Shown here one piece after another: positions 40,788-51,742 of a DNA stretch of 64,000 nucleotides. Below the pieces are notes generated by a model. The model made no database searches. It had not been told where the DNA came from and saw only the letters and a list, made by a program, of their open reading frames with translations. Both the position numbers and the translations under genes were made by a program. This DNA comes from Eledone cirrhosa. Lineage: Eukaryota. The DNA lies in NCBI GenBank assembly GCA_964016885.1, contig OZ024741.1, positions 118,668,001 through 118,732,000 of the forward strand, read 5' to 3'. Each line of letters opens with the position of its first letter. Position 1 is the stretch's first letter.

Positions 40788-41521
40788 ATTTATTACTTTA
40801 AATTGAGTCTGGCAAACCATATTGTTATAGTTAGTATTTTTTTCACCCTAGTGAACTTGGTCCTTTACAATTCGAACACATGTATGTTTATAGTTGTGTT
40901 TATCTCTCTTGTATATTCAATTATATTACACGGCCCAGAAAAACTTCTTTCTTGGAGCTATTTAATTGTAAGAGACTATTTTTTGAGTTTCTAACTCAAT
41001 ATCTGATATTGTCGGCTCCGTCTCGTTGAGCTAATTTAAATGTCGTGTAAACCCGGCTGCTATTCTTAGCAGCGTATGTTTATGAGACACGCTAGGTTCT
41101 GAAGTCATATGCGTTATTTCATATTCGCACATTATTTAGTCTTCTGATATACTTAGAAGTGGAAGGATTACTAATTTTTACACCCACCGAAGAGCAGAAA
41201 ATTGGTGATTCCTTCGCTTAATAATTTGCGAAACGGCTACCAAAGCTGTCTGGGTGTTTCAGGCAGTTGCCCAATATAGGTTTGTTCTTATTTTTCTTGA
41301 TTTATTACTTTAAGTTGAATCTGGCAAACCATATTGTTATAGTTAGTATTTGTTTCACCCTAGTGAACTTGGTCCTTTACGATTCGAACACATGTATGTT
41401 TATATTTGTATTTATCTCTCTTGTATATTCAATTATATTACACAGCTCAGAAAAATTTCTTTTTTGGAACTATTTAATTGTAAGAGACTATTTTTTGAGT
41501 TTCTAACTCAGTATCTGATAT
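40788..41521 (+). mobile_element. Retrozyme-like element, 512-bp unit (1.4 copies)
   Basis: Direct repeats 40788-41009 and 41300-41521; flanked by TA; internal hammerhead. Confidence 0.8.
41180..41257 (+). ncRNA. Type I hammerhead ribozyme, CCGAAGA core variant
   Basis: Stem I ACACCCA/UGGGUGU, core CCGAAGA, stem II GCAGA/UUUGC, GAAA, stem III ACGGCU/AGCUGU, GUC cleavage triplet ending at 41250. Confidence 0.8.
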
Positions 41522-41559
41522 ATATATATATATATATATATATATATATATATATATAT

Positions 41560-41758
41560 AAATTATATAGATATCCCAGTAGGTACTAGGTACCCACGGA
41601 AATATATATGGTGTCTATAATAGTGGTTGTTCTATGGTACTAATTTGAGATACCAGAACTGTAAATATGAGCGGAACAAGTAAACATTAAACAATCTTTT
41701 AAATAAATTAAAATACGATTTAAATATTTACCTCTTCTAGTGCCATGACCGACGGTTT
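41560..41758 (-). mobile_element. pLTR-like fragment that starts inside a hammerhead 3' half
   Basis: Minus strand begins AAA-CCGUCGG-UC-augg directly after (TA)n. Confidence 0.4.
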
Positions 41759-41914
41759 ATATATATATATATATATATATATATATATATATATATATAT
41801 ATATATATATATATATATATGTATATATATATATATATATATATGTATATATATATATATATAGAATAAGATAAAGCGAAGTAGTTTCAGATGTTCAAGT
41901 CCTTTAATAATAAT

Positions 41915-41988
41915 GCTGTGATATATATTTCAGTGACGACACTGGCCACACTGTTCTGTGTGCGAGTGTCGTGTCATCATCAGACAGC
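41915..41988 (-). ncRNA. Type I hammerhead ribozyme
   Basis: GCUGU-CUGAUGA-long stem II (ACGACACU/AGUGUCGU)-GAAA-UAUAUA-UC-ACAGC. Confidence 0.75.
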
Positions 41989-43217
41989 TTGTTACATAAT
42001 AAGGTTATGTTTCCGAGGCAATCCAAATTGGATCGACATGGGAACGGATGAATTGCGTGTTCTTGGGTTTTTCATCCGCTCCCTTGTGAGTACCAATTCA
42101 CCCCCACCGGCCTGCGCAAGCGCATGTCCGAAGGAAGTTGACCATTCTCCACCGCAGACTTCAACGAAATTTGCTTAGTCAGTTCACCCTGTCATCCAAA
42201 ACAATGGCCCACCAATGCCTGTACCATATTTTACTGCTACCCATCACGGCTGTGGCAGTCAGCCGAGAGCCAGAGGGGATGGGAGAGTGTTAGTTTTTAC
42301 AGGTCATAATACTACCCCTCACTAAGCGTTGACGGTACGATTGACCATCACCTTATTAGGGAAAATAAACTCATTCTAGGTATCATGGTTTTACGTTGGA
42401 AGTTAAGAGTGAGAGTTGGAAATAAAAATTAAAATCCTAAATCAAATATCAGAAATTATAAATTAAACAATTAAGAAATTACCAATTAGAAATTAAAGTA
42501 TTAAAAAAAGAATTAAAAAAATTCTTTTCAGGTGATAATTCGGATTGAGGTGAGTAAAAATATAGACTGAAGTGAGTAAATAATATGGAGAGAGATGTTT
42601 AAGTAATATGTTCTGAGAGGGATTCTAGTGTCACAGTTACTCCATCCACATATTGAACGACAGTGTCGTACATTATAACTACAGGGCTCCAGGCATTAGT
42701 GAATCTGGTACACAGTCCTAATTTCCATCACATGGAACAAAATCAAAGAAAAACAGACATAAAGTACACAAAAGAAAAGAACAGAACCAACAGTGAATAA
42801 ATGCAAAAACACAGAGTACATATATGATCCATATGATTGTCCATCTGTCCATGTATAGATTGAATTGAGGGGGCTTCTGTTCAAGTGCGATTTGGTGCAG
42901 GAAAATAGGGGTTTATCCTATTATTTGTTTCCGCATATTTATCCTACCGAAAGTTACTATTATGTCCGTCCAGTGTAAGGGGTTTCCATCCCCATGGTAG
43001 AGGGAATTTCCGGGGTAGCTTATGGTTGGTTCCTCTCTTCTCCACCATATCGGTTACATCGTAAAGCGCTCAACTATTGGAGCTAAATTATTAGGGTAAA
43101 CATAGTTGCAATTCAATTCAAGCACTCAACGTACTTTTTCCACATAGGAGTGACGGAGTAAATATCGAATAAGGAAAAGCGAAGTAGTTTCAGATGTTCA
43201 AGTCCTTTAATAATAAT

Positions 43218-43291
43218 GCTGTGATATATATTTCAGTGACGACACTGGCCACACTGTTCTGTGTGCGAGTGTCGTGTCATCATCAGACAGC
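43218..43291 (-). ncRNA. Type I hammerhead ribozyme (identical copy)
   Basis: Same sequence as 41915-41988. Confidence 0.75.
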
Positions 43292-43363
43292 TTGTTACAT
43301 AATAAGGTTATGTTTCCGAGGCAATCCAAATTGGATCGAAAACATAACCTTATTATGTAACAA

Positions 43364-43437
43364 GCTGTCTGATGATGACACGACACTCGCACACAGAACA
43401 GTGTGGCCAGTGTCGTCACTGAAATATATATCACAGC
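43364..43437 (+). ncRNA. Type I hammerhead ribozyme (inverted copy)
   Basis: gctgt ctgatga ... gaaa tatata tc acagc. Confidence 0.75.
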
Positions 43438-49045: not shown

Positions 49046-49149
49046 CGATAACTTAATTGAGTTATCGCTCGCACTGATTTTAGGTTTCTAGTCTTTAATG
49101 CGAAGAAATACCAACGATAATCAGCAGACTACTGATGAAGGACATTCTT
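49046..49149 (+). ncRNA. Candidate scrambled-order hammerhead, copy 2
   Basis: Same motif; perfect CUGAUU/AAUCAG; one stem III mismatch (GGUUU-C). Confidence 0.6.
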
Positions 49150-49371
49150 GTTTCTTGGTCTACTTTCATTCATATGTTCATATTCGCAACAACGCAACAC
49201 GCCATTTTTCATTCATATATATATATATATATACATATACGAACACCAACACGAGCGCTAATTATATAATTATGCAAATTAGTATGTCCAATTCAGAATA
49301 ACACTAAGAGAGAATGGGCATATAAACCCATCAAATGCGTGTCCCCATATGGTTGTTTAGATGATATACAG

Positions 49372-49415
49372 GTCTTCAGATGAGGGTCCAATTAGGTCCG
49401 AAAATCGATTGATGG
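49372..49415 (+). ncRNA. Degenerate hammerhead-like motif
   Basis: CAGAUGA-GGGUCC-aauua-GGUCC-GAAA-AUCGAUU; core U4 mutated and stem I poor. Confidence 0.3.
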
Positions 49416-51038
49416 TGTTTATAGTTTGTTTCCAATTTATAGAGAAATTCGTATTTTCTAGCATGTTTACATGCTTACATATTAAATATGCATATATTTA
49501 TATACAAAAGGTGCAGTTCCGGTTACACACTCTATATACATACAGGTATAACTTTATATAGTCACATACGTGTGTGTGAGAGTGTGAGTTCGTGTGTATA
49601 TGAAAAGTTAGTACATGATTCAACAGTAATAATTTTTCCCACTGTAATTATGTCTATTGTAAAATTGATTTAATTTGTAGTTTTAAAATAGGAAACCATT
49701 TAGCAAACCAACGATTAGACCAGGGTGCTTGCCCTTGTCAGAAAGGGTCACCGATTGGCTCACATGTAACTGTTCATCTATCGGCTCTCCCCTGTTGGGA
49801 TCAATTTGTCTGCATTTCTCCTTCGTATTTTTATACTGTGGGTTGTCATACCTCTTTTAATTTTTTTCATGATTTATTTTGAACTGTTCTTCCTCCACCT
49901 TGCAATTTGTTCTCATAATATTCCTTCATCCCCAGTCCTAGTGGCAATATACAGAAATTAACACCGTCACGATGTTTGGCTTCGAGCGTCGGACAAAATG
50001 TTTTGTGGCATTTGTTCCGGATCTCGGCATTCTGAGTTCAAATCCCATCGAAGTCAACTTTGCCTTTCATTCTTCCGGGGTCGATAAAATAACGTACTAG
50101 TTAAGTACTGTGGGTTGAAATAATGGACTTCCCCTTCCCTCAAATTGCCTGCCTTGAATCAAAGTTAGCAAAAAATAGCTTCATTAGTAGTAGTAGTAGT
50201 AGTAGTTGTTGTTGTTGTTGTTGTTGTAGTAGCTTATATTTCGCTATGATGAGATTTGTTTAAACAAATTAAATATTAACATTATTGCCCAGAGTGTGTA
50301 ACGAAAGAAAGCAGCTACTTAACGAATAAAGCAAACATACTACTACTACTACTACTACTACTACTACTACTACTACTACTACTACAATCATTATTAATCG
50401 TAATAACGAAGACGACGACGGCAGCACATTTATTCCAGTCTTGATGTCAGATTAATTAGAAAAGCGAAACATATCTATAATTATAATAAATATTTTTATT
50501 ACTGCGAACAATTCTCCTAAATTACATATCCCCGGGTATATTATGAAATGCATGGATGCTTGCTTCCTTGCATTGAAAACACACCGATGAAATTATTTAT
50601 TGTTGTTTTTAACATTTTGCTATTAGCCAGTCAGTCGATATACATATATACATACATACCTACCTACAGGCACGCACGCACGCACATGTATGTATGTATG
50701 TATAAATGGAATAGAATAGAATGAAACGAAATTTCATTTCTCACTCTTAGCACGGCACTTACTTAAATGTAAGTATGTATGTATACGTACATACATATAT
50801 GTATACAGACGTACAGTAGCATGTATATACATATATATATATATATATATATATATATATATATATATATATATATATATATATACATACAAGCACACAT
50901 ATATATATGTACGTATCAGTTTAGCGAACATTTATTATAATGTTCGCTTTGTTCGTTTGTAAACAAACGGACAGCCTGATTTATGCCGTACGGTGTTAAG
51001 GCAACCACGTCACCTTTTTGTTCAACACTGACACAGGA

Positions 51039-51081
51039 ACGATGTACTAGTTTCAAGCTTGTTAGCTATCGTCAGCACCGT
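51039..51081 (-). ncRNA. Minimal type I hammerhead ribozyme
   Basis: ACGGUG-CUGACGA-uAGCU-aaca-AGCUu-GAAA-CUAG-UA-CAUCGU; palindromic stem III ACUAGU. Confidence 0.8.
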
Positions 51082-51563
51082 ATACCCTTCTGCCAGATGG
51101 TTGAACGTTCGAAAGTATATACTTTCCTTATGAAAATTAACGGCTGAGCAGCCTAATTTGCATATCGAGTGAGTTCAGTCGGCCAGGCGCACCGAAAACG
51201 ATAAATGGAATAGAATAGAATGAAACGAAATTTCATTTCTCACTCTTAGTACGGCACTTACTTAAATGTAAGTATGTATGTATACGTACATACATATATG
51301 TATACAGACGTATAGTAGCATGTATACACACACACACACACACACACACACACACACACATATATATATATATATATATATATATATATATATATATATA
51401 TATATACATACAGGCACACATATATATATATATGTACGTATCAGTTTAGCGAACATTTATTATAATGTTCGCTTTGTTCATTTGCAAACAAACGGACAGC
51501 CTGATTTATGCCGTACGGTGTTAAGGCAACCACGTCACCCTTTTGTTCAACACTGACACAGGA

Positions 51564-51606
51564 ACGATGTACTAGTTTCAAGCTTGTTAGCTATCGTCAG
51601 CACCGT
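51564..51606 (-). ncRNA. Minimal type I hammerhead ribozyme (identical tandem copy)
   Basis: Same sequence as 51039-51081. Confidence 0.8.
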
Positions 51607-51742
51607 ATACCCTTCTGCCAGATGGTTGCTAAACTGGTTGCTAAACTGGTCGCTAAACTGATACGTACATATATATATGTGTGCCTGTATGTATATATAT
51701 ATATATATATACACGCACAAACATATACATATATATAATACA

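Follow-up and report, generated by a model that had tools for sequence, protein, structure and literature searches.

A (TA)n-bounded stack of unrelated non-coding elements in Eledone cirrhosa, one family of which carries a rewired hammerhead motif

The DNA analysed here is a 64,000-nt stretch of Eledone cirrhosa (GCA_964016885.1, OZ024741.1, positions 118,668,001–118,732,000 of the forward strand; hereafter the window). We consider it probable that the repeats stacked in (TA)n between positions 40,788 and 51,630 are unrelated, non-coding passengers of Penelope-like elements (PLEs), five families of which carry type I hammerheads, while family F carries a rewired, predicted self-cleaving form and is likely Naiad-derived. 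The rewired hammerhead at 48.5/49.1 kb, together with its relative at 62.0 kb, is the most unusual point of the stretch.

Hammerhead motifs were counted against block-wise, dinucleotide-preserving shuffles. The 10,843 bases from 40,788 to 51,630 hold seven type I hammerheads with exact core and each of 100 shuffles held none, so that the high motif density proposed in the first-pass annotation withstands the comparison. With one core mismatch allowed, eight type I motifs were found versus a shuffle mean of 0.09 (maximum 2), the eighth being a U4C variant. These counts refer to a relaxed descriptor, which scores palindromic stems III twice and was run on the shuffles with identical code; a strict type I descriptor returned three motifs in the same region and missed elements B and H. 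Families A, B, C, E and H follow the order C-G-S (CUGAnGA, stem II, GAAA, stem III, NUH, stem I), from which A deviates by U4C, B by leaving two bases unpaired ahead of GAAA, and H by a basal U.U in stem II. A search for the three blocks in any order (all within 300 nt, exact core, a minimum of five Watson–Crick pairs in each of the two stems I and III) gave eight matches in the whole window, six of type I and two of order S-G-C (48585 and 62085). The one-mismatch match at 2302 is at chance level (mean 1.16 per window). Among the best 150 of 218 Rfam matches in the window there was no hammerhead family and none at gathering score, all 150 being microRNA models on microsatellites or an inverted repeat; a tRNA scan of the window found none. 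Six hammerhead families had been claimed initially. Five of them are supported by type I motifs, whereas the sixth (48.5/49.1 kb) is permuted and lacks GAAA after the core.

Element A (40788–41521, plus strand) is a 512-bp unit with 222-bp direct repeats (40788–41009 and 41300–41521). Its single, full-size type I hammerhead (41180–41257, plus) lies outside these repeats, with the core CCGAAGA at 41187, stems I/II/III of 7/5/6 bp and a predicted cut after 41250. Element B (41856–43566, minus) has a 1303-bp unit, direct repeats at 41856–42036 and 43159–43339, and an inverted copy ending at 43566; its three cores (41983 and 43286 on the minus strand, 43369 on the plus strand) belong to one family of type I hammerheads with a long stem II and a palindromic stem III. 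A decayed reverse transcriptase (RT) in B was looked for, and no protein was found at E ≤ 1 among 24 candidates, which is a weak test. Element C (44110–44665, minus) is a single end flanked by two TA arrays (type I core 44211, predicted cut 44162), and element D (46093–46560, no strand assigned) is an inverted pair (46093–46246 and 46408–46560). Element E (46617–48331, plus) combines a non-coding body of uncertain left border and a tail rich in AT with a type I hammerhead of minimal form (core 48248, plus; predicted cut after 48285). Element F (48484–49222, plus) is a 547-bp non-coding unit with 180-bp direct repeats (48496–48675 and 49043–49222) and TA arrays on both sides; segment G (49238–49500, plus) begins with a short inverted copy of F's left end. 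Element H (50702–51660, minus) has a unit of about 525 bp with an internal microsatellite and minimal type I cores at 51075 and 51600, both on the minus strand, and a decayed relative of H lies at 9.0–9.7 kb. A diverged relative of F, F2 (61632–62135, plus), is found between TA arrays, with 74% identity to F over 96 nt. The further families suggested at 6.07/63.2 and 8.5 kb are borne out by type I motifs: family I (6050–6090, minus; minimal, core 6083) has a second copy at 63218 on the plus strand with a core change, and family J (8495–8540, minus; minimal, core 8533) has TA arrays on both sides. Two ribozymes in direct orientation occur at the locus only in B, F and H, and A, C and E have one each. 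Marks of PLE-type insertion are present as direct repeats in A, B, F and H and as inverted copies in B, D and H2.

Partial motifs had been reported at 41.75, 46.2 and 49.4 kb; the latter two contain fragments, nothing is recognisable at 41.75 kb, and no descriptor matches any of the three, which were accordingly rejected as intact ribozymes. The motif in D (46206–46217) retains GAAA, the palindromic stem III and the cleavage triplet and lacks an intact CUGAnGA, while the degenerate hammerhead-like motif in G (near 49377–49412) consists of a core variant and stem II, with neither a valid cleavage triplet nor stem I.

Eleven cores, one per insertion, lie 48–331 nt from the nearest (TA)5+ array, with a median of 97 nt compared to 828 nt for the window, and none of 10,000 random draws matched this closeness. 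The proposed bounding by (TA)n is apparent at window scale; within 40,788–51,630 itself, however, the background distance is no more than 227 nt, and adjacent insertions have arrays in common. The term hotspot applies to this region relative to the rest of the 64-kb window, with six insertions at 12 TA arrays inside versus five at 38 arrays outside. The families are mutually unrelated as supposed, since blastn (word size 7, E ≤ 0.01) over 16 segments linked only F with F2, H with H2, and I1 with I2. That no element encodes protein is supported by Pfam at curated cut-offs, which matched none of the 67 stop-to-stop frames examined in 40,788–51,630 (116 listed) and none of the 24 read-through frames taken from A, B, E and F/G; the coding content of C, D and H was judged from stop-to-stop frames alone.

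The repeats are likely best read as non-autonomous, hammerhead-bearing, TA-targeted PLE passengers, a reading that is itself already published (PMC7229834; 10.64898/2026.07.22.740005). Craig et al. 2021 (PMC8557442) describe PLEs that target TA and occur as partial tandems and inverted copies. Like the non-LTR retrozymes described in the former two reports, the elements are non-coding, low in GC, organised in head-to-tail units with type I hammerheads, and present as many families per genome (16 in a published coral), with mobilisation by PLEs presumed. They differ in unit length (0.5–1.3 kb here versus 170–400 nt) and copy form (mostly 1.1–1.8-mers here versus arrays), family F lacks the type I motif, and RNA and circular forms of the present elements are putative; the retrozyme criterion of Li et al. 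(10.64898/2026.07.22.740005) is at least two tandem units with a ribozyme in each. The hammerheads of B, C, E, H, I and J share a short palindromic stem III, a short stem I and an extra base between positions 9 and 10.1 with the minimal pLTR hammerheads of metazoan PLEs (PMC4209133). Unlike in the latter, no coding PLE body is attached here, and in family A stem III is full and the core is U4C.

Alternatively, all segments could be 5′-truncated ends of ordinary coding PLEs without a separate non-autonomous or circular-RNA life cycle. PLE insertions are indeed mostly 5′-truncated and form partial tandems with inverted copies, and C, E, I and J, which show a single end, could be such simple truncations. 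Conversely, A (512 bp), B (1303 bp), F (547 bp) and H (525 bp) are complete 0.5–1.3 kb units between direct repeats, hold no protein family, and are therefore not simple truncations of coding PLEs. The units of F occur head-to-tail, and only 1% of the F contigs (X1/X2) continue into unlike sequence, a weak argument because these contigs are short. As an account of all segments, truncation is considered improbable.

For the favoured passenger reading, the following route is proposed. A read-through transcript would be cut by the ribozyme once per unit (in F after the AUC at 48541 and again 547 nt on), and, by analogy with other retrozymes, an RtcB-type ligase may circularise the monomer. An RT/GIY-YIG protein from elsewhere would then nick (TA)n and copy the RNA, and copying more than one lap round the unit could give rise to the partial tandems and inverted copies. 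Each insertion would leave TA on both sides, which is proposed to invite the next one. The suggested mobilisation in trans by a PLE remains the best reading, whereas a single helper common to all families is unlikely, since different clades are indicated: canonical PLEs for the type I families, Naiads for family F.

The hammerhead of family F departs from type I in its connectivity. In copy 1 (48499–48591, plus) the motif starts with hairpin P0 (48499–48520), followed by stem II (48522–26 with 48552–56), helix X (48527–32 with 48572–77), stem III (48536–40 with 48561–65), C17 at 48541 with a predicted cut at 48541/48542 after AUC, and stem I (48542–47 with 48579–84); GAAA is located at 48558–61 and CUGAUGA at 48585–91, all on the plus strand. 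The blocks thus run as stem-II strand, cleavage site, GAAA and CUGAUGA, i.e. in the order S-G-C with a double pseudoknot, rather than as C-G-S with nested helices. The conserved CUGAnGA, GAAA and NUH are in register with stems I and III, which measure 6 bp and 5–7 bp, respectively, in F copy 1 and F2. Stem II is a 5-bp helix with a two-sided change and ends one base before GAAA. The A preceding GAAA (11.1) faces C or A in F and F2, and the usual G10.1–C11.1 pair is absent. Two other placements of stem II in F were rejected: a local stem directly after CUGAUGA is not followed by GAAA, and a linked SGC stem is not kept by F2. Copy 2 (49046–49138, plus) has a change of its own at 49086, which disrupts one pair of stem III and where the family majority holds the pairing base, and F2 repeats the motif at 62000–62091 (plus; core 62085, predicted cut after 62041). 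The backbone is open between A9 and position 10.1, which is the only core linkage where an additional base is known to be tolerated; such a base is common in PLE hammerheads and is found in one viroid hammerhead. The split form and type CSG are related to each other by circular permutation.

Types SGC and CSG have been described as non-circularly permuted hammerheads that cleave in vitro (Eckert et al. 2023, PMC10085705). The examples come from metatranscriptomes and metagenomes with no known organism, CSG being known only from two metagenome sequences. Family F shares the S-G-C order, the double pseudoknot, the short linker between stems I and II, and an extra helix tying these two stems together. 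The published SGC design differs in that CUGAnGA is directly followed by the stem II strand, a block assumed to be uninterruptible, whereas in family F this strand lies about 65 nt upstream. Accordingly, both S-G-C matches of the window (48585 and 62085) class as split and not as linked, with F showing the SGC order and at least two pseudoknots.

As the split descriptor was written post hoc, with the motif already seen, the arrangement might be fortuitous base pairing within a degraded repeat where CUGAUGA and GAAA occur by accident. Only two lineages are at hand, and a looser version of the descriptor gave one match, in one of 100 region shuffles. With at least 15 Watson–Crick pairs required, no match was obtained in 100 region shuffles or 25 window shuffles. 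Permuted forms of any kind were found in at most two of 4,000 random 600-nt strands and were absent from 120 viral loci selected for both cores; these loci, drawn from the at least 120 in viral contigs that match a CSG-type pattern and used purely as a control, included two type I forms. In the alignment of both F copies with F2, five helices are kept, and 80 of 81 cells are paired across 27 pairs (26–48% in slid controls). The two independent lineages in the window differ by four two-sided changes, one each in P0, II, III and I, and 12 of 500 column shuffles reached the observed covariation. Pseudoknot-free folding of the single strand was not clearly better than that of shuffles (z = −0.75, −0.97 and −1.86). 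Together with a like layout in ctenophore, cnidarian, mollusc and crustacean Naiads, the conservation makes a chance origin very hard to credit. Matches to the family F pattern in viral (2 loci) and metagenome (7 loci) contigs lack stem III and were dismissed as chance.

Copies of family F outside the window were compared through 40 of 208 differences listed. The family is present in high copy number, with head-to-tail and also opposite-strand joints in DNA contigs and loose ends in TA. Across the common differences listed for the runs of organism A, stems I–III and the core are intact; two differences restore pairs (49086 and 48574), and one variant alters the free N7, the only core position seen to vary. 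In the sole contig of organism B, a relative, that covers the motif, one stem II pair and two stem III pairs are broken, and no partner changes were found among eight of nine differences listed.

Family F resembles Naiads in its (TA)n preference, its partial tandems and, as read by eye, its split 3′ layout (PMC8557442). We inspected 29 Naiad 3′ ends of about 600 nt each from File S5 of that study by eye, mostly picked for their “HHR_core/half_core” flag. The split form of family F, P0 and helix X included, was recognised in seven, among them two Octopus families and one Euprymna family, all listed as (TA)n-targeting; seven others show the type CSG permutation, two a third order, and 13 no hammerhead-like layout. 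Naiad_Ovul, Naiad-4_Dst and Naiad-3_Chem exemplify the split form, and Naiad_Hpol and Naiad_Parc type CSG. Naiads were reported without canonical hammerhead, and the “HHR_half_core” flags were given no structure (PMC8557442). We found no published account of split or permuted hammerheads in Naiads, and the passages seen of PMC10162972 and PMC7936874 contain no split form. Unlike Naiads, family F has no EN-RT protein, and similarity to a Naiad was not seen in the sequence tested, a 14-nt Naiad motif that is absent from the window; no GIY-YIG plus RT of Naiad type (CxC, DKA motifs) was found in the frames scanned, so that F can only be a non-autonomous passenger. Descent of family F from a Naiad-clade element is nevertheless likely on the basis of architecture and target; TA arrays lie on both sides of F and of F2, although (TA)n insertion is not specific to Naiads.

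Extending this, we favour on balance the view that Naiads and their passengers carry hammerheads in non-circularly permuted forms overlooked by descriptors. These would be type CSG in nematode and spider Naiads, whereas the Naiads of ctenophores, cnidarians, cephalopods and crustaceans, as well as F, would have a split form that is self-cleaving and hitherto undescribed. The split motif may instead be hammerhead-derived and no longer cutting, at least in F, being kept as a signal for the helper RT/endonuclease or as a stabilising end. The 10.1–11.1 mismatch in F and F2, the broken pairs in organism B, the poor in vitro cleavage of minimal PLE hammerheads and the efficient multiplication of Naiads without any hammerhead-like motif (PMC8557442) are compatible with such a loss. 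Still, in all split examples read, both cores and the NUH triplet are precisely aligned with stems I and III, variation in the core was seen only at N7, and the published split examples, unlike F and F2, mostly retain G10.1–C11.1. Loss of cleavage is thus regarded as unlikely, and a self-cleaving split hammerhead is preferred.

The cluster as such adds little, as hammerhead-bearing PLE passengers and TA targeting are already in print. If the split form holds true, the connectivity of hammerheads would extend beyond the six permutations thought possible, with a catalytic core built from four separate strands. Non-circularly permuted hammerheads, so far environmental orphans, would gain a high-copy home in animal genomes, and type CSG its first known host in nematode and spider Naiads. 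It would also explain the “missing” hammerheads of Naiad retrotransposons, and it would undo the argument, built on their absence from Naiads, that hammerheads are mere dispensable parasites in PLEs.

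Using a relaxed type I descriptor, i.e. the canonical order of block C (CUGAnGA), block G (GAAA) and cleavage site S, seven exact-core hammerheads were recovered between 40,788 and 51,630, but not one in any of the 100 dinucleotide shuffles made block by block; with one core mismatch allowed, the numbers were eight and, on average, 0.09. The hammerhead motifs proposed in the first-pass annotation are largely real, at a density exceeding that of shuffled sequence. The type I motifs represent five families, A (a full-size motif at 41187+ with a U4C core), B (41983−, 43286− and 43369+), C (44211−), E (48248+) and H (51075− and 51600−). 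Outside this stretch, the additional families suspected at 6.07/63.2 and 8.5 kb were recovered as I (6083− and 63218+) and J (8533−), together with a decayed H copy near 9.4 kb. Most type I motifs of the window feature a short palindromic stem III and an extra base, like the hammerheads of Penelope-like elements (PLEs; PMC4209133). Comparison of the segments showed no sequence common to different families. Of six mutually unrelated families originally claimed, the five listed for the stretch hold as type I, whereas the sixth, F, is of another kind; no descriptor was passed by any of the partial motifs (41.75, 46.2 and 49.4 kb).

Direct repeats define units of 512 bp (A), 1303 bp (B), 547 bp (F) and about 525 bp (H), and inverted copies were seen for B, D and the 9-kb copy of H. 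The layout of A, B, D, F and H corresponds to the partial tandem and inverted copies described for PLE insertions (PMC8557442). The elements lie beside TA arrays, with 48–331 nt between core and array and a median of 97 nt, against 828 nt for the window but 227 nt within the stretch. The non-coding nature is borne out by the lack of any Pfam family at cut-off in the 67 of 116 listed stop-to-stop frames of the stretch that were scanned, and in 24 read-through frames. A hotspot is less pronounced than suggested: the stretch has six insertions adjoining its 12 TA arrays, the remainder of the window five adjoining 38, and the local excess, measured within the window only, is thus modest. In both H copies (50702–51660 and 9011–9704) a TA/CA microsatellite is found inside the unit, as if an old target had been captured. 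Just beyond the right TA flank of F, the left end of this element (48486–48496) recurs as a short copy in inverted orientation (49238–49250). Further short TA-bounded segments include 8758–8987, which resembles a small PLE-type partial tandem with an imperfect internal direct repeat of ~50 nt and contains no hammerhead passing the descriptors, as well as 41560–41757 and 11560–11810, which are unrelated to other families; the latter terminates in a long perfect hairpin (11735–11805).

The surrounding window is AT-rich animal DNA with microsatellites throughout and more than 25 copies, many nested or in tandem, of one SINE-like repeat, which we take to be octopus-type. Proteins detected by Pfam in the scanned frames are of LINE type only, and no PLE protein was found in these frames. 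A nearly intact LINE (22.5–27.3 kb) carries endonuclease, reverse transcriptase (RT) and zinc-finger domains in overlapping frames at 23.9–27.3 kb, preceded by an ORF with a weak zinc-knuckle match. A non-LTR fragment (59529–60554, +) matches zf-RVT and continues into a frame presumably related to restriction-type endonucleases, albeit with no Pfam match. At 8168, an (AC)n(AT)n array truncates a decayed LINE-like coding remnant (6950–8165, +). Two tandem arrays were also noted, one of 5.9 kb with 161 copies of a 36-bp unit (29162–35056) and one with 6.2 copies of 88 bp at 99% identity (35348–35896).

Family F (48484–49222, +) comprises two motif copies (48499–48591 and 49046–49138) that had been read as recognisable hammerheads. 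They are not of type I: the block order differs and no GAAA follows the CUGAUGA at 48585. Instead, the 5′ half runs from a hairpin (P0) through the 5′ strand of stem II and a strand of an extra helix (X) to the stem III strand with AUC and a stem I strand. Following a 4-nt linker, the 3′ half opens with the 3′ strand of stem II, followed by a single A and then by GAAA and stem III, the second X strand and finally the stem I strand with CUGAUGA; stems II, III and I are mutually crossing. A relative (F2, 61632–62135, +), comparison with which revealed this order, shares 74% identity over 96 nt. The 27 pairs give 81 cells over the three copies; 80 of these pair, and P0, II, III and I each contain one two-sided change. 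The copies represent only two independent lineages. The observed covariation was reached by 12 of 500 column shuffles, and slid structures pair to 26–48%. The second ribozyme of F is weakened at this locus. An order-free three-block search of the window returned eight strong matches, six type I and two split (F and F2). The split descriptor, composed after the motif had been seen, gave 0/100 and 0/25 hits in shuffles at the strict level and 1/100 at the loose level; among 4,000 random strands, no more than 2 held a permuted form.

Eckert et al. (2023) distinguish six arrangements of the C, G and S blocks and demonstrate cleavage for the SGC and CSG forms, reporting CSG only from two metagenome sequences and neither form from a known organism. 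Family F shares the S–G–C order but differs from SGC in that block C, which these authors assume cannot be interrupted, is cut between A9 and 10.1, a linkage that accommodates an extra base in natural hammerheads, including those of PLEs (PMC4209133). It can equally be described as a CSG hammerhead whose stem I strand, together with CUGAUGA, is shifted to the 3′ end.

For the Naiad clade of PLEs, Craig et al. (PMC8557442) report an absence of canonical hammerheads; eight families are flagged "HHR_half_core", with no structure given. Of the 54 consensus sequences in their File S5, 29 were inspected visually over roughly the final 600 nt; these were picked mostly by core or half-core flags and named from their place before the next header. 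Type CSG was recognized in seven ends (Parc, 1_Nbra, 2_Nbra, 3_Nbra, Hcon, Hpol and Smim), having a stem I of 5–6, a stem II of 4–5 and a stem III of 6–12 bp plus helix X. The split form, including P0 and X, is seen in seven others, complete in Obim, Ovul, 4_Dst, 3_Chem and 2_Movir and imperfect in Esco (stem II mismatch) and Bfor (2-bp stem I). In Lpol and 1_Dst, stem II follows the cleavage block and is likewise separated from CUGAnGA; 13 ends showed no such form in the ~600 nt viewed. Together, these by-eye readings explain seven of the eight half-core families. Twelve of the 29 ends, several of them close relatives, satisfy by eye the random-strand search thresholds, compared to about 0.015 expected. 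The hammerhead-less ends of 1_Movir, 4_Chem and perhaps Mmer contain stretches that we take to be twister-like, and ribozyme classes may be swapped among Naiads. Another conserved 3′ motif is common to 1_Chem and 2_Chem (PMC8557442, File S5).

Copies of F were counted in four of eight public sequencing runs, representing at most three samples. The unit was matched by 1,704 contigs of run X1 and 1,527 of X2 (one sample), and by 2,950 reads of X6, mostly at 90–99% identity or lower, indicating a high-copy family. Contigs connecting the unit end to 48495 reveal head-to-tail joints in DNA, and some switch strand. Among 40 of 208 listed differences, those common inside the motif in organism A affect the P0 loop, the linker or an unpaired stretch, or restore pairs at 48574 (helix X) and 49086 (stem III), where X1 carries the pairing base in 12,883 of 12,914 depth; one variant changes the free N7 of the core. 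By contrast, a single contig of organism B spans the motif, and it disrupts one pair in stem II and two in stem III; among eight of its nine differences, there is no compensating partner change.

The cluster of type I hammerhead repeats is of a kind already in print: non-coding repeats of this type that yield circular RNAs and are probably helped by PLEs have been described (PMC7229834), a 2026 preprint (10.64898/2026.07.22.740005) makes the case for their being non-autonomous derivatives of PLEs, and (TA)n targeting is described for Naiad and Neptune (PMC8557442). Within the literature searched, which covered few subscription journals, we found no report of a core opened at A9/10.1 or of permuted hammerheads from any PLE, Naiads included. 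Judged from sequence, the split hammerhead of F is a new form predicted to self-cleave. Motifs, repeats, TA flanks, pairing and copy number are the observed part of the picture. Self-cleavage would occur once per unit, a host ligase might then close the product into a circle as described in PMC7229834, and PLE RT/GIY-YIG proteins would copy the RNA in trans at (TA)n. Insertions would pile up locally in TA arrays because every insertion leaves fresh TA targets. Release of monomers from this locus could take place for B, F and H only. Canonical PLEs are the likely helpers of the type I families, and a Naiad that of F.
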